A model generated the notes under the pieces. The model did no database searches and had not been told where the DNA came from. It was given only the letters and a program-made list of their open reading frames with translations. Positions 17,144 to 40,000 of a stretch of DNA of 40,000 bases are shown one piece after another (position 1 is the stretch's first letter; each line of letters begins with the position of its first letter). The stretch is from NCBI GenBank assembly GCA_048264125.1, contig JBLXDM010000002.1:318005-358004 (forward strand), given 5' to 3'. The position numbers were made by a program, and so were the translations under genes. This DNA comes from Natronincolaceae bacterium (GTDB lineage Bacteria; Bacillota; Clostridia; Peptostreptococcales; Natronincolaceae).

Positions 17144-17172
17144 AAAAAAAAGCGGACTGGCATAACCAGTCC
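17144..17172 (-). terminator. Rho-independent terminator closing the phage lysis cassette
   Basis: The minus strand reads GGACTGG-ttatg-CCAGTCC followed by GCTTTTTTTT. Confidence 0.7.
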
Positions 17173-17256
17173 ATAAATACAGAAACACTAAGGCCAACGT
17201 CATCCCCAGCGCCAGCGAAGGGTCGCAGTTCTAAAGAGCTTTAAAATAGCGACTCA

Positions 17257-17592
17257 TCAAACTGCTGGTTCATTTTCCTCTGATAAAAATTCCTTCAAGC
17301 GGCCGACGGCATCCTCTATCAAATCATCCAACTGCTGCTGCGTATAAATTACCCTTAATATCCATGGCAGCCTTTTATAAAGACCTTCAAGAACCATATC
17401 ATACTTCAGTCGTCCGGTACCGCTCCCCAGCTTCTTTTCAGCCTCTACTACCAAGGAAAACACTATTTTCTTTACCAATTCGTGATGGCCTCGCTTATAT
17501 AAAATTAGACCTGAGGCTACCAATAATAGGATTAAGATTATGTCCACCATATTGGTCTTTATAAAGCTATATACTACACTATGCATCATCAT
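17257..17592 (-). CDS. Small membrane protein, LL-H-type holin-like (putative)
   Basis: 111 aa with one N-terminal TM (VDIILILLLVASGLILY). The following segment VVEAEKKLGSGTGRLKYDMVLEGL resembles LL-H family holins. Its start overlaps the amidase stop. Confidence 0.5.
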   Translation of the reverse strand: MMMHSVVYSFIKTNMVDIILILLLVASGLILYKRGHHELVKKIVFSLVVEAEKKLGSGTGRLKYDMVLEGLYKRLPWILRVIYTQQQLDDLIEDAVGRLKEFLSEENEPAV

Positions 17593-18247
17593 TCCCCCCC
17601 TTTAAATCCCTGTGAATATTCGCCATTATAATCATAGCCGCCCACACAGGCATCGGTTCATCAATTTTATTTGTCCATAGCACGGAGTCATTTATAAGGC
17701 CTCTTTCCTCGAGATATTTCAGGCCCTCCAGCTTCCATTCATCAGCCTCTGCTTTCTCTGTCGGAGCTTCAGAGCGGGCCTTTATACCCTGCTCAATATC
17801 CGTAAGAAACTCAGTCCATCTGGGCAATAGCAGTCTCGGACACTCCTTTCCACTCCAGCTCTTATGGGTGCGGATATTTGCTATTCCCCAGCCCCTTTCT
17901 ATTAGAAGCCTAACCACAAGGTCTATGGCATTTTCCCAGGTCCTTTGCTGATCTCCCGACTCACAGACCTCAATCCCTATGCTGCTCCTATTGCCCTCTG
18001 CATTGCCTGCATGATAAGCCACCTCATTAAGTGAGATGCACTCTATGGCCTCCTTATCATCCACCACAATATGAAAGGAGGCAGCTCTGTTATTTTCAGG
18101 ATTAGTGAGCCACCCCCTTTCGTTTCTTGCTGTAGACTTTGGATTTCCTGTATTGTGGATTGTTATACTGGTCATGCCTGCTCTGGTGCCGGGTCTTTTA
18201 TCTTTGGATATTGGGATATGGTCTACAATATAGTCCATATTTATCAC
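17579..18247 (-). CDS. N-acetylmuramoyl-L-alanine amidase endolysin (Amidase_2/PGRP fold) with a C-terminal wall-binding region
   Basis: 222 aa. Motifs are ITIHNTGNP, ASFHIVVDD, AYHAGN, SIGIEVCE and HKSWSGKECP. Confidence 0.9.
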   Translation of the reverse strand: MINMDYIVDHIPISKDKRPGTRAGMTSITIHNTGNPKSTARNERGWLTNPENNRAASFHIVVDDKEAIECISLNEVAYHAGNAEGNRSSIGIEVCESGDQQRTWENAIDLVVRLLIERGWGIANIRTHKSWSGKECPRLLLPRWTEFLTDIEQGIKARSEAPTEKAEADEWKLEGLKYLEERGLINDSVLWTNKIDEPMPVWAAMIIMANIHRDLKGGNDDA

Positions 18248-18450
18248 CTGCCTACAAGCTTTTCTTTGATTTCCTTGACATCATCCTTAACATCCTCAAT
18301 AATATTGAATTTGCAGGAAAGCTCTTGAATGATATCCTGATACTTTTCCTCTCTTTTACTATTTTCCTTTAATACATAAAAAAGAAGGTAGCCAAATAGC
18401 ATTGCAAATATTCCTTGGCTTAGAAGTTGCTGTATTATTTCATTTTCCAT
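18244..18450 (-). CDS. BhlA/UviB-family holin-like protein
   Basis: 68 aa. QGIFAMLFGYLLFYVLKENSKREEKY matches the BhlA signature (QGPFAVLF..LLFYV.K..KERE). A C-terminal coiled coil follows. It has a 4-nt overlap with the amidase start. Confidence 0.8.
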   Translation of the reverse strand: MENEIIQQLLSQGIFAMLFGYLLFYVLKENSKREEKYQDIIQELSCKFNIIEDVKDDVKEIKEKLVGR

Positions 18451-18512: not shown

Positions 18513-18539
18513 AAAATAAAATAACACCGTATAGGTGTT
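18513..18539 (-). terminator. Weak terminator-like hairpin between the tail genes and the lysis cassette
   Basis: The minus strand reads AACACC-tatac-GGTGTT followed by ATTTTATTTT. The stem is only 6 bp. Confidence 0.3.
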
Positions 18540-18755: not shown

Positions 18756-19163
18756 TTACATTCCCCCCATCATAATTTCATACCATAGCATTGCTAGCTC
18801 TGATTCTGTTGCACTTGCTTTGTCCTCTAATATCATTGCGCTATACCACAATTCAGCAACCTCAATCTCTAAGGGGTCTGGTGCTTGCGGTTCGGACTCT
18901 AGTTGTTCGAGTATCTCTACCACTTCGTAAATTACCACAACTTCACCTTCTTTTACTTCATAACCACCACGCTGTAAGTAGTTCGTTTCGTGGTTATACT
19001 CGGGCAGTTCATCCCTTATGGGTAGCCAGCCCTCTTGAAGTAGTGTTTCGTGGTCAAGTAGATTATAACCGCTTACGCTGCTGCCGTCTTTCAGGTAGCC
19101 TGTCTGCGGTAAACCTACTTTTGTTACTTGGTTGTTTTCTACTAATGCATAGTTCATTTTCAT
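18756..19163 (-). CDS. Phage hypothetical protein in the XkdW position
   Basis: The ORF is 18756..19205. The likely start is ATG 19163 behind AGGAGGG (MKMNYALVENNQV...). It lies between the tail-fibre genes and the xkdX-like gene. Confidence 0.5.
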   Translation of the reverse strand: MKMNYALVENNQVTKVGLPQTGYLKDGSSVSGYNLLDHETLLQEGWLPIRDELPEYNHETNYLQRGGYEVKEGEVVVIYEVVEILEQLESEPQAPDPLEIEVAELWYSAMILEDKASATESELAMLWYEIMMGGM

Positions 19164-19168
19164 CCCTC

Positions 19169-20407
19169 CTATTCGTACCATTTTCCATATAGACGTATAA
19201 TCCACGGAGCGCTTCTTCTATCTTCAAACATAAATATGGGTAAATCAAAATCTAGTATGTCGTGACACATCTGCGTGTTTATATAACTAGGAGACGTTGA
19301 ATCTGTAATTTCAGTTATACTTGACCATGTTCCACTATTGGTAATCATGCGTAAGTTATATACAGCAGAGCCTGTGCTTGCCTTTGTGCCAGCCCATATA
19401 ACATAAATTTTTCCATTTTTATCCGCTATAACATTTGGCCTTTGCTGATTGTAAACATTCCCAATAGTTAATTTCGCCGGAACACTCCAATTTACACCCC
19501 CATCCGTTGAAGTACAGTACCGTATGTTAAATGTCCCTGTGTTTACACTATCCCTGCTCTCCCACACAGCGTGGATTATATTAGTGTTCTTATCATAGAA
19601 AGTAGCAACTTCCCTTTGGGTGTAACCTTCAGAAAATATATGAGGGGCTTCACTCATTATCCATGAACTAGAAGGCTTCCTCCAACTTCTAATTTCATAA
19701 ATACCAGCATCACTTCTGAACCAAGAGGCTACAATTACTGGTATATTACTAGTTGTTGATTCAATGGAGATAAATTGATAATTATAATTTGTGTTAGTAT
19801 CAAAACTGACTTGTATAACAGTGCCCCATGCTATTGAGTCATCTGAATTAATAGTCCCAGCTCTATATCTTATATTGAAAGACTGTGAATAAGTCGCATC
19901 TTTAGAAATCCATGCACAATATATGGAATTTTTAGCCGGATTGAGGCTCATGGTTATGCTCCCAGATAGGCCCCCTGTAGAGTTAAATGTAGTTTGATTG
20001 TTTGCTATATCCACGGTTGAAGCTGTTATATCCTCATAACTAACTGTAGTAGCGTCAAAGTGTACAAAATAGCTTCTTACGCCTCCTGCCGTGCTTGACT
20101 TAGCCCAAAAAGCATAGACTGTATTCCCTCTACTTGTTATAGCCGCACCAGCGGCACTTTCTGAGTTTGAGTAAACTAATGGTGTCCATGTATGTCCGCT
20201 ATCCTCAGATTTTTCAAAGAAGATTGTGTCTGTTGTACTCGTATTCCTCAACATAGCTATTAACCAACCATTTTCCAAACGAATTATTTTCTTGCCACCA
20301 CACGCTCCTCCAGTGACTATATTGGTTGTTCCCTCTTTAATTGTTGGCATTGTACTTCTATCAATTAACCTTTTGCCACCGCCCATTCTCATTCTTGTGT
20401 CTAACAT
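19169..20407 (-). CDS. BNR/Asp-box repeat (sialidase-like beta-propeller) tail-associated protein
   Basis: 412 aa. Canonical Asp-boxes are SEDSGHTW and STDGGVNW, and blade-like strings recur (GNTVYAFWAK, NSIYCAWIS, GKIYVIWAG). A TAATG overlap joins it to the tail-fibre gene. Confidence 0.75.
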   Translation of the reverse strand: MLDTRMRMGGGKRLIDRSTMPTIKEGTTNIVTGGACGGKKIIRLENGWLIAMLRNTSTTDTIFFEKSEDSGHTWTPLVYSNSESAAGAAITSRGNTVYAFWAKSSTAGGVRSYFVHFDATTVSYEDITASTVDIANNQTTFNSTGGLSGSITMSLNPAKNSIYCAWISKDATYSQSFNIRYRAGTINSDDSIAWGTVIQVSFDTNTNYNYQFISIESTTSNIPVIVASWFRSDAGIYEIRSWRKPSSSWIMSEAPHIFSEGYTQREVATFYDKNTNIIHAVWESRDSVNTGTFNIRYCTSTDGGVNWSVPAKLTIGNVYNQQRPNVIADKNGKIYVIWAGTKASTGSAVYNLRMITNSGTWSSITEITDSTSPSYINTQMCHDILDFDLPIFMFEDRRSAPWIIRLYGKWYE

Positions 20408-21702
20408 TATAAAGTTACCTCACTAATAGCCTGTGAGCCTATCCATTTTGTACCGCCATCGAAAGTAAAGAATGTATAGACTGCTGTTTTATTCGCAGTA
20501 GGCACAGCAGGTATTGTACCATTAGCCCACCTCACAGATGCAGGGAAGATAATAGATACTGCTGTTGCAGGTTGAGTGACAATGAGAGTAAGCGAATGAC
20601 ATTGACCACTTGTCGCAGGATTATCAAAAGTAAAGGTTACATTGGATGTTAATGTGTATCGGTGTACATTACCATAATTTAAATTTACAGATACACTAGC
20701 TCCAACTCCAGATATAAATATAGTCTCAGTATAGTTTTTGATTTGGGGTGCTGTTAGCAAGTTCCTGCCAAATGCAACCTCTCCAGTGAATGTATCGCCA
20801 TTAGCATTTACTAATTTAGTCCATGGTTGCCATATTTCTTGAAAATGATGTCTTATCCACATTTCCCTTAATCCACCATTATATTTGACCGCAATTTGGC
20901 ATCTGTTTGATTCTATGGCTACAGAAGAATGAAAGAATGTCTGTATGTGCCAATAATAGGAGGAACTAGGGGAATTAGCATGATTTGTTACCATATAACC
21001 ACGTAGTACAGTGTCGGGGTCATCAGTTGTTGCGGCGACGTTTAACATTGGCATTTGTTTTACATTATCCACATTAGGATTTGATTTAAATTGCAACCAA
21101 GTTCCCCACGCGTTAGTAGTTATTTTTGACCTAATATAAAAAGCAGGATTTACATTTCCTCCTATATCGTGAGGATAAAATGTTTGCCATATATATTGAG
21201 TATCATTAAATGTTGTACCTAACCTTGTTGCTACTTCTAACCTACCATATATATTACCTGTAAATGGTGCGTTAGCTAGTCCTGAGCCAGTGTGAGCCAC
21301 AGAATAATTTCCTACAGATAGGGCATTATTAAAGTCTACTACCTCGCCTAAATATTTAGAAGGTGCAAATTTATCTAAGGCTTCTTTTGTCCTTAGTGGT
21401 GTCATATATTTTTCATTTGAAGTTCCTGCTTGCGCTTCAGTTTGAGAGGCTGTCCCGTGTGCCGTACTATCCGCTTTATGCACAACAAAGTCAGTCTCCA
21501 ACTCATCTATGGCTGTGTTGATATTACACAAACTTAGCCCCTGAGCCTCAATGCTATCACTCATGGTCTGAGTCTTACCCTCCAATACCCCAAAGGCCTC
21601 ATCAATCTTCATATTATCCTCAACAAAATCCTGCCGCTTTACATATTCATTGCCCATCCATTGGTTTAAACCAAGGCTTTGGGTCTTTTCCTGACTTGGC
21701 AT
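20407..21702 (-). CDS. Phage tail fibre protein
   Basis: 431 aa. It follows the baseplate genes. It carries the fibre motif HKADSTAHGTASQTEAQAGTSNEKYMTPLRTKEAL and a knob-like domain shared with the 33871..34695 protein. Confidence 0.8.
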   Translation of the reverse strand: MPSQEKTQSLGLNQWMGNEYVKRQDFVEDNMKIDEAFGVLEGKTQTMSDSIEAQGLSLCNINTAIDELETDFVVHKADSTAHGTASQTEAQAGTSNEKYMTPLRTKEALDKFAPSKYLGEVVDFNNALSVGNYSVAHTGSGLANAPFTGNIYGRLEVATRLGTTFNDTQYIWQTFYPHDIGGNVNPAFYIRSKITTNAWGTWLQFKSNPNVDNVKQMPMLNVAATTDDPDTVLRGYMVTNHANSPSSSYYWHIQTFFHSSVAIESNRCQIAVKYNGGLREMWIRHHFQEIWQPWTKLVNANGDTFTGEVAFGRNLLTAPQIKNYTETIFISGVGASVSVNLNYGNVHRYTLTSNVTFTFDNPATSGQCHSLTLIVTQPATAVSIIFPASVRWANGTIPAVPTANKTAVYTFFTFDGGTKWIGSQAISEVTL

Positions 21703-22250
21703 TATATCGCCTCCTTATATGCTTCTAATTGCTCCCATGTGAGATTTAGGACATCCCAAGCCTGCCAGCTTTTATTAAAGTCATCAAATTCACTCCAGGT
21801 CAAATAGTTAAACCTGAAGCTGAAGGGAAGGTGAGCAGGCTTAATGCTATTGATGGTGTCCTCAAGGTCATTTAAATTGGGAGGTACACCCCTAGTGCCT
21901 ACAAAGCTTATGACAATGGAGCCATCAAAGCTCACCTGTACCTCTCCATTGGAATAGGCCTCAGCCACCAGCTGTATGAGCCGGGCATCTACCTTACCAG
22001 TGCCCCGCCATTTTGACTTAATGACACTCCTTCGCTCCTCAAGGCCTTTGCTTAAGTCGGTTTTTATACCCAGCTCTGCCTCATATATCTCCAGGCCCCA
22101 TGTTGCCGTGTCAATATTTAGCTGCTGCCTAATCTCCTCAATGCTTGCCTCTGCAGCCTCAAGCTCCTTTTCCTCGCCTCGGAAGATTTCATTAAATATT
22201 TGGGATTTCCTCATAAATATGGGAAGGTAATTAATCAATTTAGTCCTCAT
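21702..22250 (-). CDS. Baseplate/tail protein, XkdU/YmfQ (gpI-like, DUF2313-type)
   Basis: 182 aa. It reads YLPIFMRKSQIFNEIF...ATWGLEIYEAELGI....LEERRSVIKSKWRG and lies downstream of the baseplate J gene. Confidence 0.75.
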   Translation of the reverse strand: MRTKLINYLPIFMRKSQIFNEIFRGEEKELEAAEASIEEIRQQLNIDTATWGLEIYEAELGIKTDLSKGLEERRSVIKSKWRGTGKVDARLIQLVAEAYSNGEVQVSFDGSIVISFVGTRGVPPNLNDLEDTINSIKPAHLPFSFRFNYLTWSEFDDFNKSWQAWDVLNLTWEQLEAYKEAI

Positions 22251-23310
22251 TGATAGCTACCTCCCCTAAAACAGGAATCTCATTCTCCTCCAGATAAATA
22301 TTTGTTGCACCGCCATTAAGGGAGAGATTCGTATAATCAACTATGCCTGATGTTTGGAGAATCAAGCTTCCTATAATTGCATAGCTAATATAACTGTCAG
22401 TAAATGAGACCTCTCTAAAATAGCCCCTAAGAGACTCCCTTACCGCCGCTTCAACCGCTTCCTTTGTATAGCTTCCCTCCAGCACTGCATCGAAGGATAT
22501 CTGCAGGAGCTTTGCCACAGCACTTTCAACAGTACAATGGGCTCCAATTGGTGCTGCTCCCTCTCCTGCTCCAGCGGCATTTGGGTCAATATGTCCCTGC
22601 ACCATTTCTACTATTTCAGAGTCTGCCGGCTCCTTTAGCTCATTGATTATGACCACCTTAACCGTGTTGTCACCGGCCCATAGTGGAAATACCTTTGCAT
22701 CGCCAACCCCCTGAACCTCCTTGGCCCAGCTTTTATAATGGGCTCTATTGCCGCTGGTGGTGGGGGTCTTTATTCTCTCATAATATCTCTGCAGCAGGGC
22801 CTTATCACCTTCTGCTTCAAACCCATTGTTGGTGGGCTGTGGATTTGTTGCCTCTGTTATTCCTGCTATGGTTATAGGAATACGCCTTACTTGATTGGCA
22901 GGTACATTACCAACAACCCCTTCAGCTAAGCATTGAATCTTAACCAGTGCTAAGCCGGCAACATTCCGTGTCTCAATTGCTTCAAACTGTATCCCGCTTT
23001 CTGTCTCAAACAGACTCCCCATTGCTACGGTACCATTACCCTTTACCTCAACCTGACCTATGGCCTTGGTGGCGGCTTTTCTAGTTAAGCCTGTCATCTG
23101 ATAAATTTTCTGCTCCAGCTCAGCTGCCGACAGCTTTTCAATATCCAGCTTTTCGGCTACTATGCTCATATCCTTATACATTTCTTCCAGTCTAATGGCT
23201 ACAGGCTTGGTGGCATCATATATAAAGCTGCCCTCTGTTTTGTCATATTCGTTGCTTATCTCCTGCATGATATCATCATGTATTTTATTTCTTTCCTTTT
23301 CTTTAAACAC
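22240..23310 (-). CDS. Baseplate J-like protein (XkdT/gp47 family)
   Basis: The call rests on 356 aa length, its position, and a J-like N-terminal region (EGSFIYDATKPVAIRLEEMY). Confidence 0.85.
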   Translation of the reverse strand: MFKEKERNKIHDDIMQEISNEYDKTEGSFIYDATKPVAIRLEEMYKDMSIVAEKLDIEKLSAAELEQKIYQMTGLTRKAATKAIGQVEVKGNGTVAMGSLFETESGIQFEAIETRNVAGLALVKIQCLAEGVVGNVPANQVRRIPITIAGITEATNPQPTNNGFEAEGDKALLQRYYERIKTPTTSGNRAHYKSWAKEVQGVGDAKVFPLWAGDNTVKVVIINELKEPADSEIVEMVQGHIDPNAAGAGEGAAPIGAHCTVESAVAKLLQISFDAVLEGSYTKEAVEAAVRESLRGYFREVSFTDSYISYAIIGSLILQTSGIVDYTNLSLNGGATNIYLEENEIPVLGEVAINED

Positions 23311-23728
23311 TCAGCATCACCTCCTGCTCTATGGCATTGTTCACATTAAAGAAAATAGTTAGGCATGAGTTATCCTTTTCCAGCTGCCAGCCGCTGATAT
23401 TCATTACCTGTGGATTCTTCATCAATGCCTCAGTAATCTCTCTTTTTATCTCGCTTTTTATATACTCTATAGGGAGATTCTGACCTACGATTAAATCCTC
23501 CAGTGATACACCATAGCTGCTTGTGTAGATTTCATGTTTTCCCTTTTCGGTCCTCAGGAGCTTTTCAATCCAGATGCTTAACGCCTCCTCATCACTGGCC
23601 TCCACCAGTCTTCCATCCTTCATTACAAAGTCCCCACCTTCAAAATCAAATAAAAAGGACCTACCCTGTTGTAAGCCCTCATTCGATTCCGGTGATTCAA
23701 TTTGTAGATATCCTATCCTTGGTAGCAT
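23303..23728 (-). CDS. Baseplate wedge protein, XkdS-like (DUF2634/gp25-like fold)
   Basis: 141 aa. It reads FLFDFEGGDFVMKDGRLV...IWIEKLLRTEKGKHEIY and overlaps the J gene. Confidence 0.7.
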   Translation of the reverse strand: MLPRIGYLQIESPESNEGLQQGRSFLFDFEGGDFVMKDGRLVEASDEEALSIWIEKLLRTEKGKHEIYTSSYGVSLEDLIVGQNLPIEYIKSEIKREITEALMKNPQVMNISGWQLEKDNSCLTIFFNVNNAIEQEVMLSV

Positions 23729-24079
23729 CTAAAAGCTCACCGCCTTATCTAATACATAATATTTCTGTTCATCCTTTGTGGGGATTATGATCACCCTATC
23801 ACCTGCCTGAAGGGAATCTGTAAATTCAATTTCACCCTCCGCAGTAAAAGGAGCATCAACGTCTAAAAATTCAATGCTTCCATTAGCCCGATAGCCTCGT
23901 TTATGGTCCTTTAGCATATGGGCTGCAAAAATCAAATGCTCCTTGGTAAGAATGATTTTTTCCCCTAAGGCCACTTTAATATCCGGCAATGGTGAAACCA
24001 CCCTTCCCAGCTGTACCCCTGAATTAACGATGTTATCCCTAGCCCTGAGGAGCTTCGCCAGCTCAACTATACCATTCAT
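23729..24079 (-). CDS. Baseplate spike/plug protein, XkdR-like (DUF2577-type)
   Basis: 116 aa. It reads GVQLGRVVSPLPDIKVALGEKIILTKEHLIF and is in synteny. Confidence 0.7.
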   Translation of the reverse strand: MNGIVELAKLLRARDNIVNSGVQLGRVVSPLPDIKVALGEKIILTKEHLIFAAHMLKDHKRGYRANGSIEFLDVDAPFTAEGEIEFTDSLQAGDRVIIIPTKDEQKYYVLDKAVSF

Positions 24080-25051: not shown

Positions 25052-25474
25052 TTACACCTTCTCCCTCTTTAGCTGAATGAATTTGAATTCCTCCAGGCTT
25101 AATGTATAATATATATCCCCGCTGCCATTGGACACGCCATAGGTGAAGTCCTCAATCGTGCAGGCCATATTTATAGGAGTATTTGTAATAACCAGCCTAA
25201 TGGGAAGCCTCTCGGACATCCATGCCTGCAGCCGCTCAACATACTCCCAGCCCATATACCTTCTGGCCCTTAAAAAGGGATAGTTCCTTACTGGAAAGAA
25301 TGACTGAATGGATATGGATTTTAGCCCCTCCATTCCTATTAGCTTTATATCCCCCTGCGAGATTGTCTCATAGGTTTCATTTTTTTGGGGATGCTGAAGG
25401 GTAAACTCCTCTGGAACTACGGGAAGCCGAATAATTTCTTTCCTATTGTTTATAGATAAAAAGACATCTATCAT
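25052..25474 (-). CDS. Tail protein in the XkdP position (no LysM motif seen)
   Basis: 140 aa, immediately after the tape measure gene. The call is positional only. Confidence 0.5.
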   Translation of the reverse strand: MIDVFLSINNRKEIIRLPVVPEEFTLQHPQKNETYETISQGDIKLIGMEGLKSISIQSFFPVRNYPFLRARRYMGWEYVERLQAWMSERLPIRLVITNTPINMACTIEDFTYGVSNGSGDIYYTLSLEEFKFIQLKREKV

Positions 25475-27470: not shown

Positions 27471-27487
27471 ATCTCCATCACTACTTA

Positions 27488-32120: not shown

Positions 32121-33113
32121 TTACCATCCACTGTGAGGCTTTACAACTATAGCACTAATTGAAGTAATATTAGTAGTTATTTGCCCCGTTATCTTTACTC
32201 TACATTTACTTCTTATCTTTTGCATTCTCCACATTTGATATTGCATAAGATTTGTTGTTAAATGCCAAGTATGTGTTTGATACCCAGAACAACCACAACC
32301 ATCTGAGTAATAAGTATCAAAAGCCGCTGTATGAAGTATATTATTTGCTTCATCAACTATTTGAAGCTCACCTTTGCCTTTGAGAGTTAATGTTAATTGT
32401 CTTAATCCATTAAAATCATGTAGCTCTGAAGTATAAGTGGCTCCAGCAGTTATAGTTCTAGAACCACTTACTATAACTGTATGAGAAGGTTTAAGCATTA
32501 ACATTTGATATATTGTTGATTGACCTCCCCAATAAGAGTCGCCACGGCAACAATCTTCATCATAATTAGATCTACCTCTAATATCAATAATAATATCACC
32601 TTGATGGTTGAGTACGCTTGAATTAAATGCATACAAGCTATTCATGGGTGAGTGCGTAGCACCACTATAACCAGTGTTATAACTATGCGTTTGAAGTATA
32701 CTTAAGTCGGAAGCTTTGCGAATATATAAATAAGCAAATGCGCTACCAAATCCTTGAAAATGGCCTGTAAACATTAAGTGAGTGAATCCTGAAGCATTAA
32801 CATTAAATCTCATATATCCATATACACTTTCATTATAACAACAGTAAAACTGTAGCCTTGCATAAGTTGACATATCTAAAAATCTTAAAGAGTTACCCAA
32901 AGGTATACCATCAGCACCAGCTATTATAGGTGTGCCCTTAAACCCAAAGTCATATAATACTCCCTCAGATAGTGGATCGTAATTTACCCAACCTTCTCGC
33001 CAAGTACCACTTATGTTAGGACTTATAGAATCTACCTCTCTCCATACTCCATTAATATTTACCCATGAACCATCGATTTTTCGCCAAGTACCACCTACAT
33101 TAATATGAGACAT
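32121..33113 (-). CDS. Unknown 330-aa beta-rich protein with N-terminal G-x-W repeats and vicinal-cysteine clusters (possibly a distal tail-fibre or receptor-binding protein)
   Basis: A strong RBS GGAGGTG lies 7 nt upstream. The N-terminus is INVGGTWRKIDGSWVNINGVWREVDSISPNISGTWREGW. Cysteines occur only at 91-92 (CC), 188-189 (CC), 273/275 (CGC) and 304. No TM or signal peptide is present. Confidence 0.6.
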   Translation of the reverse strand: MSHINVGGTWRKIDGSWVNINGVWREVDSISPNISGTWREGWVNYDPLSEGVLYDFGFKGTPIIAGADGIPLGNSLRFLDMSTYARLQFYCCYNESVYGYMRFNVNASGFTHLMFTGHFQGFGSAFAYLYIRKASDLSILQTHSYNTGYSGATHSPMNSLYAFNSSVLNHQGDIIIDIRGRSNYDEDCCRGDSYWGGQSTIYQMLMLKPSHTVIVSGSRTITAGATYTSELHDFNGLRQLTLTLKGKGELQIVDEANNILHTAAFDTYYSDGCGCSGYQTHTWHLTTNLMQYQMWRMQKIRSKCRVKITGQITTNITSISAIVVKPHSGW

Positions 33114-33116: not shown

Positions 33117-33218
33117 TTACACCTCCAATAAGGCTATTACCTGTCCTTTCCACTTTGTAGGTACTTGCTCGACAGTCCATAAACCTTCTTTTATTAAGTC
33201 AGCATATATTTTAGCCAT
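33117..33218 (-). CDS. Small conserved-looking phage protein (33 aa)
   Basis: Below the track cutoff. It reads MAKIYADLIKEGLWTVEQVPTKWKGQVIALLEV. Its ATG overlaps the stop of the upstream gene by 8 nt (ATGGCTAA). Its 3' end carries the RBS of the 330-aa gene. It resembles short A.LI..G..T...VP proteins found next to Firmicutes phage fibre genes; this is from memory, not a search. Confidence 0.5.
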   Translation of the reverse strand: MAKIYADLIKEGLWTVEQVPTKWKGQVIALLEV

Positions 33219-33858
33219 TAATATCCTCTCCTTTTAATAAGATACCAGCCAGCTCTACTAATGCTAGCTTGATATCAATATTATCTTGTAAAATTTGTTG
33301 AAGGACTGTCTCAATTGTGTTCGACTCGTTAATATTTTTAGTTGGTATATCATTCACTATAAGGTGAATAGTTAAAGTTTCTTGAATGTCTTCACATTTT
33401 GCAGTTACATGAATTTGGTCTTCTGGTTTATCGGGTTTAGATACTAAAACTTCACCGTTAGTAGCACCCTCCCAAATAACTTCTCCTAGATAAATATTAT
33501 TATATTGATCTCTAACTTCTGCATTAAGTGTTATAATTCTTTCAGGGTCGCCCTCTTCGAAAAATGCACAATTGTCTCCCTTAATTATAATCTTATTTGC
33601 CTTTGGTTCTTCGGGTATGAAACCTATGCCATCTACATTTAGAGGTGCAAGAATGGATGGATAACCTCCCAATTCTACTACTTTCTTTTCATAGTCTAAA
33701 GAATGCTTTATTACTTTATACAACTCCATGTATTTTTGTTCTTCACTCAAACCTTCTATAGTTTCTTTACCTATGGAACCATAAACTAATATATTATCAT
33801 ACACAAATCCTGCTGAAATGTCTGTATTCGTTTCTTTGTATTCTATAATTGTATACAT
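33211..33858 (-). CDS. Phage hypothetical protein downstream of the tail fibre (accessory or chaperone position)
   Basis: 215 aa with a GGGGGG RBS. It is AT-rich like the cassette that follows, and I recognised no motif. Confidence 0.55.
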   Translation of the reverse strand: MYTIIEYKETNTDISAGFVYDNILVYGSIGKETIEGLSEEQKYMELYKVIKHSLDYEKKVVELGGYPSILAPLNVDGIGFIPEEPKANKIIIKGDNCAFFEEGDPERIITLNAEVRDQYNNIYLGEVIWEGATNGEVLVSKPDKPEDQIHVTAKCEDIQETLTIHLIVNDIPTKNINESNTIETVLQQILQDNIDIKLALVELAGILLKGEDING

Positions 33859-33870: not shown

Positions 33871-34695
33871 TTACTTATATTTAATCCATATGTCTCCATT
33901 GCTTCCACCACTTGGGTCAGCTGTAGACATAATTACATTTCTTAGCTGTCTAGTAGTATATGATGTGTTCGATTGCGCAACAGCTATTCCTGTGAAAGCG
34001 TCACCATTAGCGTTTACTAACTTAGTCCATGCACTCCAAACAGCACTATATCTGTTACGTATATAAATACCATTACCGCCATTGTATTGAATTGCTATTT
34101 GACAAGCATTAACTGCTTCACCCAATGAGGCATAGAAGTATGTTTGTATATACCAGTAAAATGCACTATTTGGACTATTTGAATGATTAGTAAGTATCTG
34201 ACCATGCAATGTGGTATTTGGGTCTGCGGTTGTGGTTCCTTGGGTAATCATTGGAATTTGCTTTGCGTTATCTACGCTACCAAGCCCTACTTGGGATTTT
34301 GTTACAGTATGTGGATTCGCAGTATCCGCCTTATGTGCATTACACTCATTTTCAATAGCCGACACCTCTTGAGCTATAGTTGCAATTTCGCTATCAGTGT
34401 ACCCTTTAGCTGTATCCACCGCACCCTGCAACTTATTATCAATATCATGGGCAGTGTTGTCTGTCTTATGCTCCTGTAGCTCTTGTTCTGATGCAAAGCC
34501 TCCTTCATCCATCGTTATAGCTTTTTCCTGCAGCTCCTCGATTGCTTTATAGCTTCTATTAAAGAGCCAATTTAACCACCCTGCAGGTGGTCTTTCCTGC
34601 GGCTGCCAGCCCTCTGTCTGCTTGGAGGCAGGGGGCTCTGTGCCTACATTCTCCCACTTGGGGAGTCTTTCATTAAAATTTCCCATAGCTTGCAC
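33871..34695 (-). CDS. Phage tail fibre protein (module 2)
   Basis: 274 aa. The N-terminus is LPKWENVGTEPP...GWQPQERPPAGWLNWLFNRSY. It carries HKADTANPHTVTKSQVGLGSVDN, a knob domain shared with the module-1 fibre, and the ending GGSNGDIWIKYK. Confidence 0.8.
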   Translation of the reverse strand: MQAMGNFNERLPKWENVGTEPPASKQTEGWQPQERPPAGWLNWLFNRSYKAIEELQEKAITMDEGGFASEQELQEHKTDNTAHDIDNKLQGAVDTAKGYTDSEIATIAQEVSAIENECNAHKADTANPHTVTKSQVGLGSVDNAKQIPMITQGTTTADPNTTLHGQILTNHSNSPNSAFYWYIQTYFYASLGEAVNACQIAIQYNGGNGIYIRNRYSAVWSAWTKLVNANGDAFTGIAVAQSNTSYTTRQLRNVIMSTADPSGGSNGDIWIKYK

Positions 34696-34698: not shown

Positions 34699-35316
34699 CT
34701 ATATTGGTAAATCCAAATCATTCCCCGGCGAATATACTGCCCCTAGAGTTCCCCCTATGGTCTGCTCTAAATCGGCTAAACCTGTGGTGGCATCAAGCTC
34801 TAGCACATTATTTGAAGCTGAAAACTGAAAGGTCCCTTGAAACAGCACCTTTGCCCTAACCCCAGCTGCCACTATTAGGTTTACCAGCCTTCCGAATTGG
34901 TTGATTGAGAAACCTATACTGTTCAGCAGCTCCGTTGGGAAGCTTATAAATACGCTTGCGGCTTCTGGCTCATCGGGGTCATTGTAAAGCTCCTGAACCT
35001 CAATATCCTCAGCTGTGGTGTTTAAGGTGACGGACAGTATTCTTATGAGTGTATTGATATCTCCGGTGGAAAGGTTTCTTGCAACGCTGGATTTTATTAG
35101 TATTCTATAGACCTCATCCGTTGCTGCCCCCCTTGGCTGCTGTAGGTTAACTCCTATCCTATCCAGCACTTCACCTATTGCCTGATCGATATCTCTGTAG
35201 GCCTCAGTTTTATTTACGGCCCCCTTTATATCCTCCAGCTCACCTGCTACTATGCTGAAGAGCTTTCCTATATTGCTACCGGGGTCTTTTTTGTAGTTAT
35301 CCGTCAGTCTATCCCA
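34699..35316 (-). CDS. Baseplate/tail protein, gpI/YmfQ-like; true start unclear
   Basis: The track ORF starts at GTG 35169. The open frame continues upstream with family-like sequence (WDRLTDNYKKDPGSNIGKLFSIVAGELEDIKGAVNKTEAYRDIDQAIGEVLDRIG) and no canonical start codon. The nearest ATG (35320) is one nucleotide out of frame. Confidence 0.55.
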   Translation of the reverse strand, partial: WDRLTDNYKKDPGSNIGKLFSIVAGELEDIKGAVNKTEAYRDIDQAIGEVLDRIGVNLQQPRGAATDEVYRILIKSSVARNLSTGDINTLIRILSVTLNTTAEDIEVQELYNDPDEPEAASVFISFPTELLNSIGFSINQFGRLVNLIVAAGVRAKVLFQGTFQFSASNNVLELDATTGLADLEQTIGGTLGAVYSPGNDLDLPI

Positions 35317-35324
35317 GCATTGAG

Positions 35325-36512
35325 CTAAGCACTGGTTACCACCACCCTGGTATAGTCTGTTTCGGCAACCCTTGCCATCGTTACTGCAATATTCCCTGTT
35401 ATATATTCAACTCCGTCGGTGGATACCTGTAGCTCTAAATCATTTATCCCCGGTACGCCATAGGCTGAATTTATCAGCTTGGTATACACCAGCTCCTGCC
35501 CCATTCCTAGGCCCGAGTATATATTTCCGTCAGCATCTGTACCGCCTATATGCTTAATTAGCTCTGTCCTGACTCTATCGTCCCCATCCAGTGGGTATAG
35601 TGTGCTTTTAGAAATATTGACCCTACAATAAATAGGAACCTCCTCGGCGAAGGTGAAGTTTACAGTATGGGGGTTGCCTGCGATATCCTTTACTGATACG
35701 GATTGAGTGCCCACAGTTTCTATTCCTGCTGCCTTGGTAGAAAGAATGGCTTCTCCGATATTGTCGGGATTTCCCCCCAGCACATAGCATTCTATGCTTT
35801 TAGGTGGTCTGCCCTCATCATCCTCAGCACTACTGCTGTTTTCCAATACCAAGGCCGCCCTTACCCCCGTCAGCTCCAGTAGGCTCGCCCTAATACTGGC
35901 AAGGGTACTGGCTCCACCTCTGGCAACGGATTTGATATATCTCTCCCGAAGCTCTGCATCTGTTTCAATATTTGTCCCCTCTGAAAGGGCTGCGGGGTTG
36001 GTTATGGACTCCACTCCAGCTATAGGGTTTGTGATTTCTGTTATTGTATTGGCGGGTACATTCCCTTCAACACCGGGCATCATGGCCTCTATGGGAAGCA
36101 GCAGCTCTCCTGCCTCATTTATGACACCCAACCCTGTGGTTTTAAATTTTATTTCATCCTTGGTCTCCACAATAAAATCCTTCTCTACCATAGTACCGCT
36201 GTCTCCAAGGATTAATATTTCCCCTTTTGCCGACGTCCACAGTCTTCTTTCTATTCCAATGTACTTGCCTAGATAATCCAGCTGCACGCCCTCTGCAGTG
36301 TCTACATAGCCGCTGTAGTAGACCTTTTCGGTGGTCTCCCACAGCAGCGCCAGACTCCAGGCAATTACCCTGAAGAATATTCCCAGGGGACTTCTTGGGC
36401 TGAGATTTACATCCTCTCCAAACAGGCCTTTGGCCCTGCTGTTCATGCTTTCTATAAGGTCGTTGTATCTCTTTCGTTTAAAGCCCTGCCTGCCTAATCC
36501 AAAGCTATCCAA
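35325..36512 (-). CDS. Baseplate J-like protein (module 2)
   Basis: The call rests on 395 aa length, position, and a J-like N-terminal region (SPRSPLGIFFRVIAWSLALLWE). Confidence 0.85.
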   Translation of the reverse strand: MDSFGLGRQGFKRKRYNDLIESMNSRAKGLFGEDVNLSPRSPLGIFFRVIAWSLALLWETTEKVYYSGYVDTAEGVQLDYLGKYIGIERRLWTSAKGEILILGDSGTMVEKDFIVETKDEIKFKTTGLGVINEAGELLLPIEAMMPGVEGNVPANTITEITNPIAGVESITNPAALSEGTNIETDAELRERYIKSVARGGASTLASIRASLLELTGVRAALVLENSSSAEDDEGRPPKSIECYVLGGNPDNIGEAILSTKAAGIETVGTQSVSVKDIAGNPHTVNFTFAEEVPIYCRVNISKSTLYPLDGDDRVRTELIKHIGGTDADGNIYSGLGMGQELVYTKLINSAYGVPGINDLELQVSTDGVEYITGNIAVTMARVAETDYTRVVVTSA

Positions 36513-36867
36513 TATCCAGCACCTCCTCTACCTCAATTGTTTCTCCGCTTTTCATCAAGGCTATAAAGCTTAACTGAAGCTTCCTTTCCTTTCTATCAAA
36601 GCTCATATTAAATTCCTTCAGCTCTTCAAACCTAGGGTCCTGACTCAATGCCCTGATTATTTCCAGCCGTTTTCTGTCATCCTCCACCAGCTTATTCCGG
36701 ATAATATCAATGTCCAGCCCATGCTCTATGTTTAGAAACCATTCTCCTATATTTGTGGATAGAACCCTCTCTATGCTTTGGGCTGCTTCCTCTCGCCCCT
36801 CTACTAATTGTAGACTGTTCTGTCCGTCAAATACCAAATCATCATTTTGAAGCTTTAATGTCCTCAT
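36505..36867 (-). CDS. Baseplate wedge protein, gpW/gp25-like (putative)
   Basis: 120 aa. AAQSIERVLSTNIGEWFLNIEHGLD resembles the gp25/W motif. It overlaps the J gene. Confidence 0.55.
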   Translation of the reverse strand: MRTLKLQNDDLVFDGQNSLQLVEGREEAAQSIERVLSTNIGEWFLNIEHGLDIDIIRNKLVEDDRKRLEIIRALSQDPRFEELKEFNMSFDRKERKLQLSFIALMKSGETIEVEEVLDIG

Positions 36868-36871: not shown

Positions 36872-37252
36872 TCACCTCAAGTGACCTATTATTATCGCAT
36901 CCTTCAAATCATGCTTCCTGCTGTATTTAGGGTCAGCGATTTTCCCCGTTATGACATTGTCCAAGGCCCTTTCTGCAAAGGACACCACTACGATGTCTCC
37001 CTTTTCGTAAAAGACCTGCTCCAGCTTTATTACCCCACTGTCATCCTTGTATTTCCTCCGTAGCACCGGCACTGCCATTATGGGGCTATATTCCGAAGCG
37101 GGAGTGTCTACATATTTCCTCATAAATAAAGGAACTACATCAGCAGTTCCCTTCGCTTCATTGAAGCTTAATACTCGGCATGGCATACAGGTATGGATTT
37201 CAGCAATCCTCTCCTCTAATAAGGCCTTCATAAATTTAAGTAGGCTGCTCAT
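36872..37252 (-). CDS. Baseplate central spike protein (Mu gp45 / gp138 N-domain-like)
   Basis: 126 aa. It reads IHTCMPCRVLSFNEAKGTADVVPL...AVPVL...EKGDIVVVSFAERALD...HDLKDAIIIG. Confidence 0.6.
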   Translation of the reverse strand: MSSLLKFMKALLEERIAEIHTCMPCRVLSFNEAKGTADVVPLFMRKYVDTPASEYSPIMAVPVLRRKYKDDSGVIKLEQVFYEKGDIVVVSFAERALDNVITGKIADPKYSRKHDLKDAIIIGHLR

Positions 37253-38040
37253 AGAGGCATCACCTCACATTCGGTAACAAAGCTGCCCTTGTGGCTGCCC
37301 TTTTTAACCTTGAAATTACCTGTTACAGCTCTGCTCTCTATCCTTATAAGGCTATCTACATTTATTCTATGATTTAATAGCATTTCCACCTTGTAGCCCT
37401 CTGCCGCTTCTTTGCTGAGCCTTTCGGGACTGCCTATCATGCCTGTGTCGCTGTTTAAAAGAAAGCCTGTCTCAGTGCCCTTCTTTGCAGGACGAATGAA
37501 GATTACACCATTTTTTACATAGAACCTGCTGCCGGTATCGCTTACTATTGTCTTTATGTTATTTTGCAGCTGACCGCTTAGGTTCAAGCCATTTGTATAG
37601 GTAATATCCTCCGTTAGCTCTATGTCACCTATTTGCAGTCCAAAGCTGCCCAAAAGCTCTGTCAGTACCTGTGAGGCCTTTATATTACTTCTATAGGTCT
37701 TGTTCACTATGGTCTTAAACCAATCCTGTGAGCCATCCACCACCATCAGCTTCAGCACCTTATCCAGTCCATCATGACTGGTCTCAAGCTCCTTTACTAC
37801 ACCTATTAGTAGACTCCCTATATCTCCTGCATAGCCTGCATTAAGTATGACCTTGGAGCTTTGACCTATGCCATTAAGGGTGGCGCTGCTGAGATTATAT
37901 ATTTCTACATTGCTGACATTGGGCTCTGGATCATCATCAAAGCTGATATCAAAATTGATTTCAAAGTCCTTATTTGTGTACTTTTGTCTGTCTATGATCA
38001 GCTCTATGCTTCTTCCGAATAAATTAGCCATTGTCCTCAT
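37249..38040 (-). CDS. Baseplate hub protein (gpD/Mu gp44/XkdQ-like)
   Basis: The call rests on 263 aa length and position between the spike gene and the genes proximal to the tape measure. Confidence 0.5.
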   Translation of the reverse strand: MRTMANLFGRSIELIIDRQKYTNKDFEINFDISFDDDPEPNVSNVEIYNLSSATLNGIGQSSKVILNAGYAGDIGSLLIGVVKELETSHDGLDKVLKLMVVDGSQDWFKTIVNKTYRSNIKASQVLTELLGSFGLQIGDIELTEDITYTNGLNLSGQLQNNIKTIVSDTGSRFYVKNGVIFIRPAKKGTETGFLLNSDTGMIGSPERLSKEAAEGYKVEMLLNHRINVDSLIRIESRAVTGNFKVKKGSHKGSFVTECEVMPL

Positions 38041-38347
38041 CTCCTATTACATACAGCAATACCCGCTCCCCCAGATTTTCATAGGTTACTCTGGTTTCCT
38101 TTCCTGTTAAATCCAAGGGCACTATTACCACCGGAGGGGTGGGCAAATGTGGGAGGCTGCTGAATAAAGGCTTGCCATAAACCAGCTTTTCGCCAATGAC
38201 CACCAGCCTGCCTAGGTAATATAAATCCACTGTGAAGTAGTCGTGCTGGGTATTGTAATGAACCTCAAAGCTAAAGGTGTAGCCCCCCAGCTGCATATCG
38301 AAGCTGTAGGGTATTTTGTCCTTTTCTATTTTTATGGATTTTATCAT
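38024..38347 (-). CDS. Small tail/baseplate protein
   Basis: 107 aa. YSFDMQLGGYTFSFEVHYNTQHDYFTVDLYYLGRLVVIGEKLVYG resembles small baseplate plug proteins. The family assignment is weak. Confidence 0.4.
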   Translation of the reverse strand: MIKSIKIEKDKIPYSFDMQLGGYTFSFEVHYNTQHDYFTVDLYYLGRLVVIGEKLVYGKPLFSSLPHLPTPPVVIVPLDLTGKETRVTYENLGERVLLYVIGDEDNG

Positions 38348-38904
38348 TCCATCATAGGCCTCCTATCCTCCCGATTGCCCAGTTCAATTAATTCCTTTTT
38401 CTTTTGCTCCTTTTTTAAGTATTCATAATACTGATCCATGCTATCATATTGCGGTGGCTCCTGATACGGATATTGGAAACCATTATTTTTCGTTGGTGCC
38501 TTTAGGGGGAGCGGGGCTTTAATGGGATTAGGAAGCTCTATCTCTGTCTGTTGGCCTTTGGCTATCCTCACATGCTTCAGGCTTATGTCAAAGGTGAAGC
38601 CATTCCTAATGCTGTTATCATGGGTGGTGGACAATTTCTCTATTATTAGGTTATCTACAGCATTTCTACCCACATATCTTAACATAGCTCCGTCATTTTG
38701 ATATTTCCTCAGCCTGGCTATTGTCTCTGCTGCCTTTTCTCCCGTAACGACTCCCGATATTGAGAAGCTGATGGGATTTTGGCGAACATGGTCTGTTATA
38801 TCCGTCCCCTGCTCTACAGGGTTGGAGGTTATATCATTGGAATATTCGGGGTTTTCGCTTTCTACTACTGAAAGCTCTATATCCCCCAGCATTGCTCTTT
38901 TCAT
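38344..38904 (-). CDS. Tail protein immediately after the tape measure (distal-tail/XkdP position)
   Basis: 186 aa. The call is positional. Confidence 0.45.
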   Translation of the reverse strand: MKRAMLGDIELSVVESENPEYSNDITSNPVEQGTDITDHVRQNPISFSISGVVTGEKAAETIARLRKYQNDGAMLRYVGRNAVDNLIIEKLSTTHDNSIRNGFTFDISLKHVRIAKGQQTEIELPNPIKAPLPLKAPTKNNGFQYPYQEPPQYDSMDQYYEYLKKEQKKKELIELGNREDRRPMME

Positions 38905-38954
38905 GCTATCACCGCCTTAATGTCAACGGCACCCACAGGGGGTGCCGTTGTCCT

Positions 38955-40000
38955 TTATCTTTCAATTAATATCGGATGCTTTAGCCTCATAATACTGAAG
39001 TATTCCTCCAGCATTGGCAGTATTTGATCCCTTACTTCCCTTTTTATCAGTGTGGTTTTTGAATCATTTACCTCTCTACCCTCTACATTTACAATTATTT
39101 GTGGGGCAAAGGGCATGCTTATACTACTGCTGGATATGTCGGACTGTAGGCTACCATCGATTGTTGCATTGCTACTGCTGTTTAGTATCCTTTCGGTTCT
39201 ATAGTTGGTGGCTACCTTGGAGCCTTTTGGGAGGCTTAATAATTCAGGGCCTCTTTCTCCTACTAAGGCAAGACCTCCGGGGTGGTAGTTTGTGCCTTTG
39301 TGGTACGCATTAAATCCATCATCCTCAAATTGTGGCCCATCGCCCTTGTAAAAACCATGATAGCCATCTTCCATAATCTGATGTCCACCAGTATCTCTCT
39401 TAAAAAGAGATAAAAAGCCTTGAACTGCATTTCTGAAACCTTCAAACCTTTTATAGAGCATACCAAATACTGCTACTATACCAATAATTGCAGCAGGTAT
39501 TAAAAAAATCCACCCAACACTGACTCCTAATGCACCTGATATAATTAGCATATTACTCATCATCATCAGTAGAGGTCCCATAGCAGCTACCAAAATCCCA
39601 ACACCTACAATTATTATTTTCCATCCATCATCTAAGCGGCCAAACCAATTCACGACATTTCCTACCACTGTAAAGACATCTATTAAAATAGGCATCAAGA
39701 CCTCACCAAATTTAGCCGCAACATCTTGACATATTGCCTTAAGCCTCTCCAACTGACCTGCAAATGTGCCAGCAGCTTCTTGAGAATAGCCTTGAATTTC
39801 ATTAGACTGTTTTAAAATCTCATTGAATCTTTCAAGTTGCTTTTCATCCTCACTCAGGTCTGCAAACCCATCACCAAAATCAGCATCATTTAGTTTGTAG
39901 CCCAGTGCTTCAGCCTCTTTAGCATTACCGGCTATTGCCATACTAAGGCTGCTTATAGCATCCTCATCGCTTTTTCCGTGGAATGCCGCATAGTCTGCTC
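38955..40000 (-). CDS. Tail tape measure protein (module 2), N-terminus beyond the window end
   Basis: The frame stays open upstream of the track Met at 39941 all the way to position 40000 (..ADYAAFHGKSDEDAISSLSMAIAGN..). It has a hydrophobic central block and the C-terminal motif GTNYHPGGLALVGERGPELLSLPKGS. Confidence 0.8.
   Translation of the reverse strand, partial: ADYAAFHGKSDEDAISSLSMAIAGNAKEAEALGYKLNDADFGDGFADLSEDEKQLERFNEILKQSNEIQGYSQEAAGTFAGQLERLKAICQDVAAKFGEVLMPILIDVFTVVGNVVNWFGRLDDGWKIIIVGVGILVAAMGPLLMMMSNMLIISGALGVSVGWIFLIPAAIIGIVAVFGMLYKRFEGFRNAVQGFLSLFKRDTGGHQIMEDGYHGFYKGDGPQFEDDGFNAYHKGTNYHPGGLALVGERGPELLSLPKGSKVATNYRTERILNSSSNATIDGSLQSDISSSSISMPFAPQIIVNVEGREVNDSKTTLIKREVRDQILPMLEEYFSIMRLKHPILIER

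Follow-up and report, generated by a model that had tools for sequence, protein, structure and literature searches.

A probable double R-type tailocin cluster in a Natronincolaceae bacterium of the Alkaliphilus group

Gene content and boundaries of the locus

The stretch of DNA analysed here (the window; 40,000 nucleotides, G000:C2:318005-358004) comes from a Natronincolaceae bacterium of the Alkaliphilus group of Clostridia (genome G000) and carries two contractile-tail modules in tandem. Module 2 lies upstream, module 1 downstream, and the sole lysis cassette follows module 1; all tail genes of both modules are on the minus strand. Coordinates are given in window numbering, except for those marked L001, which refer to the 40 kb fetched beyond the window end (L001:4093-4104, for example, is window-equivalent 44093-44104). 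The closest genome, G001, is the metagenome-assembled genome of a sister species, 'Clostridiaceae bacterium M1-B18', and G021 is Alkaliphilus peptidifermentans DSM 18978.

Inside the window, module 2 extends from 40000 down to 33871 and module 1 from 29902 down to 17257. A preliminary description of the window had named two different, complete-looking contractile-tail modules sharing one lysis cassette, with no head genes between them or before module 1 and no lysis genes after module 2, and had advised a look beyond position 40000. Pfam and PHROG scans found all genes that it named, on the minus strand and in the places where it had put them. The same scans of the open reading frames (ORFs) detected head genes neither between the modules nor before module 1, and module 2 is not followed by lysis genes. 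Beyond 40000, module 2 continues for 3.3 kb with genes for chaperone, tube, sheath and neck terminator, and neither head genes nor an integrase were found there. Both modules possess the complete contractile gene set of R-type tailocins (sheath, tube, chaperone, tape measure, hub/spike/wedge and fibre), with the caveat that the start of gene I in module 2 is displaced.

The upstream end of module 2 is formed by the gene of a RinA/sigma-like activator and a divergent gene encoding an HTH-S24 (LexA-like) repressor. Host genes follow beyond the repressor and encode a Cu-amine-oxidase-N-domain protein, a VCA0040-like protein, an SDF symporter, a rhomboid protein and hemerythrins. The opposite flank, past module 1, contains the gene of an SLH-domain surface protein, two small genes and the his operon. 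By gene content the cluster thus has its own stress-type regulation, predicted to make it inducible, and its own lysis genes. Among all ORFs from repressor to terminator, Pfam and PHROG scans revealed no gene for capsid, portal, terminase, replication or integration. No integrase was found at the locus or in the scanned flanks, and the locus has no head-tail connector genes other than the tail terminators. Genome-wide, matches to Phage_portal (PF04860), Phage_capsid (PF05065) and TerL_ATPase (PF03354) are located on contigs C3 and C7 only, never in the C2 locus. The features of the locus, from the repressor to the terminator, are as follows.

L001:4304-5326, divergent from activator: HTH_3 and Peptidase_S24 repressor, 340 amino acids (Pfam)
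L001:3446-3973, minus: activator, 175 amino acids (homologues named RinA family or sigma-70 family)
L001:2941-3324, minus: Cys-rich protein, 127 amino acids, first gene behind the late promoter (no family match)
L001, minus: neck/tail terminator of module 2 (PF23961, tail terminator_9)
L001, minus: sheath of module 2, 334 amino acids (DUF3383)
L001, minus: tube of module 2 (KPP10_Orf10)
L001, upstream of the tape measure, minus: overlapping chaperone pair, 91 and 79 amino acids (ORF overlap)
38955..40000, minus: C-terminal 347 amino acids of the module 2 tape measure; the whole gene encodes 488 amino acids and reaches L001:421 (PHROG tape-measure families; motif GGLALVGERGPE)
38344..38904, minus: Dit-like baseplate protein (PF21821, E 1.6e-32)
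38024..38347, minus: baseplate plug of Pam3 gp18 type (PF22479, E 1e-24)
37249..38040, minus: baseplate hub (phrog_196 baseplate hub, E 3e-62)
36872..37252, minus: spike-type protein, N-terminal domain family (PF18352, E 1.7e-11)
36505..36867, minus: sheath initiator/wedge, W (phrog_120, E 1e-21; PF10934 weak)
35325..36512, minus: baseplate J (PF04865, E 4e-27; phrog_6, E 3e-65)
34699..35349, minus: I-like wedge gene (34699-35169 from the sole canonical in-frame start; phrog_1160)
33871..34695, minus: tail fibre of module 2, 274 amino acids (PHROG tail-fibre families)
33211..33858, minus: low-GC protein, 215 amino acids, fibre accessory by position (no Pfam, PHROG or NCBIfam match); the drop in guanine-plus-cytosine (GC) content begins here
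32121..33113, minus: protein of 330 amino acids; N-terminal 45 residues consist of (V/I)N(I/V)GGxW repeats, C-terminal part orphan
31281..32114, minus: radical SAM enzyme, cargo (PF04055, E 2e-17; no tblastn match in G001)
30217..31314, minus: multi-pass membrane/permease-like protein, cargo (six hydrophobic segments; weak DASS match)
29941..29957, minus: hairpin AACACC-N5-GGTGTT with T-run, 39 nt before the first gene of module 1 (-7.4 kcal/mol)
29447..29902, minus: tail terminator of module 1 (PF20765, E 7.5e-16)
28374..29423, minus: sheath of diffocin CD1363 type, 349 amino acids (PDB 8v3t_D, E 2.5e-65, full length; PF04984/PF17482)
27902..28336, minus: tube (PF09393, DUF2001, E 1e-50)
27330..27886, minus: XkdN-type chaperone and a downstream 46-codon frame (PF08890)
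25487..27310, minus: tape measure, 607 amino acids (PHROG tape-measure families; motif GGLALLHERGGE)
25052..25474, minus: baseplate-proximal protein, 140 amino acids (phrog_23201/5184/380)
24076..25050, minus: YqbQ-type hub (PF24032, E 1e-64)
23729..24079, minus: DUF2577 protein (PF10844, E 1e-17)
23303..23728, minus: sheath initiator, W (PF10934, E 3e-30)
22240..23310, minus: baseplate J of diffocin TRI-2/CD1371 type (PF04865, E 9e-64; PDB 8v3w_E, E 1e-40, full length)
21702..22250, minus: I of Mu gp48 type (PF10076, E 1e-34)
20407..21702, minus: fibre, 431 amino acids, with R-pyocin-like knob domains (PDB 6cl6, E 5e-7, residues 222-357; PHROG fibre families)
19169..20407, minus: second distal protein, BNR/sialidase-like, 412 amino acids (PF13088 below cut-off; phrog_21129)
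18756..19205, minus: protein of 149 amino acids (no family match; 75-80% identity to part of a G001 ORF placed after module 2)
18523..18539, minus: second hairpin AACACC-N5-GGTGTT with T-run, just before the holin gene (-6.9 kcal/mol)
18244..18450, minus: BhlA-family holin (PF10960, E 7e-23)
17579..18247, minus: N-acetylmuramoyl-L-alanine amidase, endolysin (PF01510, Amidase_2, E 6e-18)
17257..17592, minus: protein of 111 amino acids with one N-terminal transmembrane helix, lysis accessory or second holin (phrog_15303; hydropathy)
17153..17173, minus: intrinsic terminator closing the operon (9-bp stem and T8; -13.5 kcal/mol, z -4.0)

The 111-amino-acid transmembrane protein adjoins the amidase also in G001, G021, G002, G154 and G164. 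A slippery A AAA AAC at the end of the module 1 chaperone gene forms a candidate frameshift site, and no canonical slippery heptamer was found in frame for the chaperone pair of module 2. An unlisted 45-codon ORF (MWFDRIKRFYDQGLWTKE...) is located at 18617-18754 on the minus strand, between the 149-amino-acid gene and the holin gene, and may resemble the XkdX family of PBSX-like tails.

Regulators, late promoter and hairpins

In G000, G001 and G021 alike, the repressor possesses a GDSM motif, an Ala-Gly cleavage site and the conserved Lys (KR motif). Homologues of the activator are named by their sources as 'phage transcriptional activator, RinA family' or 'sigma-70 family', and one of them carries Sigma70_r4/ECF Pfam matches. 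The region between the repressor and activator genes contains three conserved, operator-like sites of the form ATCAC(C/T)-N5-GTTGTA, one of which is located between the -35 and -10 elements of the activator promoter. A perfect LexA box of the Gram-positive (Cheo) type, GAACATATGTTC, occupies L001:4093-4104, just 3' of the activator -10, where transcription presumably starts. This box is present in G000 and is found neither in G001 nor in G021; the exact 12-mer occurs three times in the genome. There are only 19 sites of the form GAAC-N4-GTTC in the genome, and host lexA has GAAC-N4-GTTT upstream.

Directly 3' of the activator stop lies a conserved late promoter element composed of three TGACCG direct repeats with 11-bp spacing, followed by TAGGCA-17-TATGAT; the late transcript is predicted to start just past TATGAT, near L001:3380. 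In G001 an extra ORF of 270 amino acids is inserted between the activator gene and this element. The core motif of the promoter occurs exactly twice in the genome, before module 2 and behind an activator homologue on contig C3, which belongs to a complete myovirus prophage (G000:C3:~124000-164000). The C3 homologue is 57% identical to the tailocin activator and the repeats of its promoter read TGTCGT, not TGACCG, which suggests that the tailocin and the C3 prophage may use orthogonal activator-promoter pairs in one cell. The 127-amino-acid Cys-rich protein (CxxC...C...C), whose gene stands first after the late promoter, is possibly a zinc-finger co-regulator; homologues conserved at 35-88% are present in G001, in G021 and in the C3 prophage.

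The late promoter element is found before each of the two modules in A. peptidifermentans and before module 2 only in G000 and G001, where the activator-type motif is absent before module 1. The preliminary description had supposed that a tail-only element is read through or co-induced with a prophage. That proposal is supported in spirit, as the activator-type late promoter stands once in the locus, before module 2. A separate sigma-70 promoter for module 1 was considered and rejected, sigma-70-like matches being no commoner there than in shuffled sequences.

A hairpin with a T-run lies no more than about 45 nt past each copy of the late promoter; in the locus (L001:3334-3361) it reaches -19.9 kcal/mol (z -5.7). 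The AACACC-N5-GGTGTT hairpins before module 1 and before the holin gene are the only two in the window, and none occurred in 100 shuffles. The stem of the one before module 1 is retained in G001 with a different loop.

Relatives and ancestry of the two modules

G001 matches G000 in both modules, in their order and in the genes that flank them. Protein identity between G000 and G001 is mostly 73-98%, with the tape measure of module 2 as an outlier at 44%. The fibre region of G001 is reshuffled, and a piece of the module 1 149-amino-acid protein sits after module 2. Nei-Gojobori ratios of nonsynonymous to synonymous divergence (dN/dS) for 21 tail genes range from 0.014 to 0.34 at a synonymous divergence (dS) of 0.4-1.6, and both modules are therefore under purifying selection, at a chromosomal site that is fixed across the two species. 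The preliminary description had named two clearly separate complete prophages at this locus in related strains as the outcome that would overturn it; they were not found, the sister species having the same head-less tandem.

More distant relatives combine the downstream part of the cluster with other upstream modules. A. peptidifermentans shares the repressor (72%) and the activator (78%). Next to them stands another kind of head-less module, which has a 438-amino-acid sheath and only 25-35% identity to module 1, and then comes an orthologue of module 1 (48-92% in most proteins) with the same lysis genes. In G012, which belongs to another genus, a third kind of head-less upstream module abuts allantoin-catabolism genes and precedes a module 1 orthologue. 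No match to portal, capsid or TerL was found anywhere in the genomes of G001 and G012.

A census of Baseplate_J pairs 10-16 kb apart on one strand covered the genomes of the family and a 301-genome sample of the order. Within the family it returned G000, G001, G021 and G012, and the order sample added G206, G089, G154 and G164. G206, from another family, has a full and head-less-looking tandem. In G089 the upstream side of the tandem may carry head genes of other families. G002, G154 and G164, candidates for full tandems by J spacing, were rejected, as all that precedes their full diffocin-like module is an extra J-I-fibre cassette; the contig of G002 is cut. Stacked head-less modules with one switch and one lysis kit recur in at least four species from three genera of the Alkaliphilus family and in another family. 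The diffocin-like module is the constant part and the upstream module the exchangeable one. Closer sets of two to three Baseplate_J genes on one strand, with a spacing of just 3-6 kb that leaves no room for whole modules, were observed elsewhere in the order at G103:C1:442754-451514 and G110:C1:4027671-4039040 and in G078, G084, G114, G119, G136 and G139. Such close-set J genes and the extra J-I-fibre cassettes may represent alternative wedge/fibre sets.

The two modules of the locus differ in their closest matches. A sheath and a triplex protein homologous to CD1363 and CD1371, two marks of the diffocin family, are found in module 1 only, and the nearest phages of this module are Terrisporobacter and Clostridioides difficile myophages (45-50%). 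The sheath of module 2 matches Pam3 and other DUF3383-type sheaths, and its nearest phages are Bacillus Sam112/Sam46 (46%), Geobacillus D6E and Listeria B054. By these matches module 1 is a member of the diffocin/PBSX-type tail lineage, and module 2 belongs to a separate lineage of Pam3 / Bacillus Sam112 type. Complete prophages with module-1-like tails are found on contig C3 of G000 and in G014 and G003, and a complete prophage with a module-2-like tail is present in three copies in G003. As each tail lineage also exists in its ancestral form within complete prophages, both modules evidently go back to such phages.

All-against-all blastp between the modules detected only three similar pairs. 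The C-termini of the tape measures are 30% identical over 116 amino acids (E 9e-9) and share the motif GGLAL.ERG.E, part of the J proteins is 35% identical over 111 amino acids, and the fibres are 51% identical over 114 amino acids (E 4e-36), far above any other pair. The stretch common to both fibres aligns to Knob1/Knob2 of the R2 pyocin fibre (PDB 6CL6, E 5e-7), the limits of these domains having been described for the R-pyocin fibre (PMC6116203). Since the fibre knob is far more similar than the rest of the modules, this pattern points to a probable exchange of receptor-binding parts between them. The motif in both tape measures and the knob common to the fibres had been recognised in the preliminary description, which called the modules strongly diverged paralogous sets. 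That term suits the three alike pairs; it does not hold for the sheaths, which are from different families, nor for the remaining proteins, among which no similarity is detectable.

The three genes at 30217-33113, between the modules, have a GC content of 28-34% against about 43% around them and are absent from G001. No full-length homologue of the 330-amino-acid protein was found among 5.8e9 proteins, and nearly all of its 82 partial matches cover only the N-terminal 45 residues or so. This GGxW-repeat N-terminus is common to dozens of otherwise unrelated proteins with variable C-termini, several of which match PHROG baseplate, fibre and virion families. With low confidence, the protein is a candidate for a further receptor-binding protein in module 2. 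It was also considered as a stand-alone cassette member, an idea that was dropped when its N-terminal repeat proved to be a common phage-protein handle. Its C-terminal 280 amino acids contain vicinal Cys pairs and are without relative. The radical SAM enzyme gave SPASM-type maturase and pVip matches, all below threshold. It was rejected as a defence system, as PADLOC gave only weak pVip-like matches (36 bits) and NCBIfam scores were far below cut-offs. Cargo genes within tailocin clusters are known from Pseudomonas (PMC4684702).

Interpretation and comparison with known systems

The locus is probably a chromosomal, domesticated and co-regulated double R-type tailocin cluster of about 28 kb, and not a prophage. 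In the mechanism proposed, the HTH-S24 repressor and, in this strain, the host LexA box would hold the activator promoter shut. DNA damage would inactivate LexA and the S24 repressor, the RinA/sigma-r4-like activator would be made and the late promoter would fire. A transcript of about 26 kb would then extend through module 2, the low-GC insert, module 1 and the lysis cassette, passing the hairpins either because they are leaky or because the polymerase has been made terminator-resistant. Two independent assembly lines would produce two distinct contractile particles. The length of a tape measure sets the length of a tail, and the tape measures of 607 and 488 amino acids therefore predict tails of different length. 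Cross-assembly would be unlikely because the parts of the two modules share almost no similarity, an argument that has been made for Pseudomonas chlororaphis (PMC12090994). Holin and amidase would release both particle types, which would kill related bacteria.

Several points weigh against this interpretation. A strong terminator-like hairpin (-19.9 kcal/mol) stands right after the late promoter and weaker ones before module 1 and the holin gene, so that the downstream genes would be poorly expressed without antitermination or leakiness. No separate promoter of module 1 was found, the sigma-70 matches not exceeding those of shuffles. A 1-nt insertion severs the start of gene I from its conserved frame, and module 2 is possibly impaired unless the insertion is an assembly error. 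Finally, the killing activity and the target range are purely conjectural.

A tentative extension, doubtful at present, holds that the double weapon is run as a single unit of about 26 kb by processive antitermination. It starts from the strong hairpin just past the single late promoter and from the matching AACACC-N5-GGTGTT hairpins at the beginnings of module 1 and of the lysis cassette. Either the RinA-like protein or the Cys-rich product of the first late gene would act like lambda Q and make RNA polymerase resistant to terminators, and two unrelated tail sets and lysis would be coupled to one decision, a problem that A. peptidifermentans would have solved by promoter duplication. If true, antitermination together with the interchangeable upstream module would constitute a 'slot' architecture for tailocin stacking in Peptostreptococcales.

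Among the rival explanations, the one that survives best is nevertheless unlikely: a single working tailocin, consisting of module 1 and the lysis genes, in which module 2 has just been inactivated by a frameshift in gene I and is kept for the promoter and activator in front of it. Relative to G001, gene I has one extra G near its start (CTGGGATAG vs CTGGATAGG), which puts the GTG/ATG start out of frame, so that it now reads M-L-G-stop. The frame of gene I is open back to the J stop, and the sole canonical in-frame start is a GTG 54 codons downstream, from which a product of 156 amino acids would be made instead of 210 in G001. The foreign low-GC insert after module 2, lacking in the sister species, would also suit an inactive module. 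However, the 54 codons upstream of the GTG are still open and their protein sequence is almost identical to that of G001, and the insertion may accordingly have arisen only lately, may be an assembly error within a run of G, or may be bypassed in translation. All other genes of module 2 are intact, with dN/dS of 0.01-0.23.

It is very improbable that the locus is a decaying leftover of two prophages which deletions have brought together and which have no present function, although the family does have the complete prophages with module-1-like and module-2-like tails described above. Such decay is opposed by the strong purifying selection on both modules at dS 0.4-1.6 and by the gene order and flanks, which are identical in G001. 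The same design is found with other upstream modules in three further genera, and its regulator, promoter and terminator are intact, as are the lysis genes. The two origins offered by the preliminary description, a fusion of two elements by deletion and a tail-only element inside a prophage, do not fit fully either, since there is no prophage and module 2 is also without terminase, portal, capsid and integrase.

Scarcely credible is a role of the tails as partners of heads encoded elsewhere, whether in a split system like PBSX or a gene transfer agent or by donation to a resident prophage. Portal, capsid and TerL genes do occur at two other loci of G000 (C3 and C7), and the C3 prophage pairs a homologue of the activator (57%) with a promoter of the same design. 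This prophage, however, possesses its own complete tail and differs in its promoter repeats (TGTCGT vs TGACCG). The head and packaging genes expected of a PBSX-like defective prophage or gene transfer agent are missing from the locus, as are connectors besides the tail terminators, and G001 and G012, both with a double tail locus, have no match to the three head families genome-wide. An extracellular contractile injection system of Afp/PVC type, with the low-GC genes as payload or payload maturation, agrees with the presence of cargo-like genes (radical SAM enzyme, permease and orphan protein) inside the cluster but is just as hard to credit: Pfam, PHROG, NCBIfam and PADLOC found no AAA+ ATPase, Afp16-type cap or effector/toxin domain in any ORF of the locus, the cargo is absent from the sister species, which retains both modules, release by holin and amidase under S24 repressor control is as in diffocin- and pyocin-type tailocins, and the N-terminus of the orphan protein is an anchor of phage baseplate/fibre type.

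Read as a double tailocin cluster, the locus has its closest parallel in the multi-tailocin clusters of Pseudomonas, in which tail-only modules of separate ancestry share one regulatory block and one lysis function (PMC4684702). The R2/F2 pyocin of P. aeruginosa, Rp1-Rp4 and the double R-tailocin of P. chlororaphis 30-84 show the same head-to-tail fused layout with cargo inside (PMC4684702, PMC12090994), and joint production and release by one lysis cassette is presumed there, likewise here. In the present locus, too, two modules of different ancestry stand between one regulatory block and one lysis function, whereas the PrtR/PrtN regulators and the holin/endolysin/spanin set of the Pseudomonas clusters are replaced by other families and the mutS-cinA or trpE-trpG site by another one, between the SLH gene/his operon side and the SDF side. 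No regulatory or lysis gene is homologous: HTH-S24 and RinA/sigma-like proteins are found here in place of PrtR/PrtN, and the whole lysis cassette is located at the 3' end and consists of a Gram-positive BhlA holin and an amidase, without spanins. The tails are diffocin/PBSX-like and Pam3/Sam112-like, whereas those of Pseudomonas are P2-, Mu- or lambda-like. The host is an anaerobic Gram-positive bacterium, and the target would therefore not be lipopolysaccharide. From these comparisons the resemblance is analogous and not homologous, and the locus is a putative Gram-positive counterpart of the Pseudomonas clusters.

The diffocin of C. difficile (CD1360-CD1374; PDB 8V3T) shares with module 1 the full-length sheath CD1363 and J protein CD1371. 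It is also head-less and under SOS-type control, and the hosts are in the same order. The diffocin is a single module, whereas here an unrelated second module is placed between the regulators and the diffocin-like module. The fibres may also set the two apart, a 431-amino-acid knob fibre and a BNR protein in module 1 as against the very large receptor-binding protein of the diffocin (CD1373/CD1374); among PDB sequences, R-pyocin fibres were the only matches to the fibre of module 1. Pam3 and temperate myophages of Firmicutes (Bacillus vB_BcM_Sam112, Geobacillus D6E and Listeria B054) have the same Dit-like protein, gp18 plug, hub, spike, W, J and sheath type as module 2; those phages are complete with heads, whereas module 2 is tail-only and chromosomally fixed. 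No described tailocin of the Pam3/Sam112 lineage was found in the literature searched. PBSX of Bacillus subtilis has, as here, XkdN, YqbQ and sheath-initiator-type genes, a sigma-type late activator, an SOS-type repressor and terminal holin and amidase genes, but it retains terminase, portal and capsid and packages DNA, and the locus is without these.

One tailocin per genome is reported to be the rule (PMC12090994), and diffocins have been described as the only well-recognised R-type tailocins of Gram-positive bacteria (PMC10538166). The double-tailocin layout looks to have been in print so far only for Pseudomonas. The present locus points to convergent evolution of multi-tailocin loci and would add a Pam3/Sam112-type tailocin lineage. 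The two modules may offer natural, mutually non-interfering chassis pairs for engineering particles targeted at Gram-positive bacteria, and the contrast between species with one and with two late promoters provides a natural experiment on the co-regulation of two assembly lines.

In C. difficile, diffocins use S-layer proteins as their receptor. Directly past the tailocin terminator, at 15089-16915 on the minus strand, lies the gene of the SLH-domain surface protein, which is 70% identical to its G001 orthologue with dS saturated, vs about 90% identity for the nearby his genes. A link between the divergence of the SLH protein and self-protection or receptor variation is conceivable.

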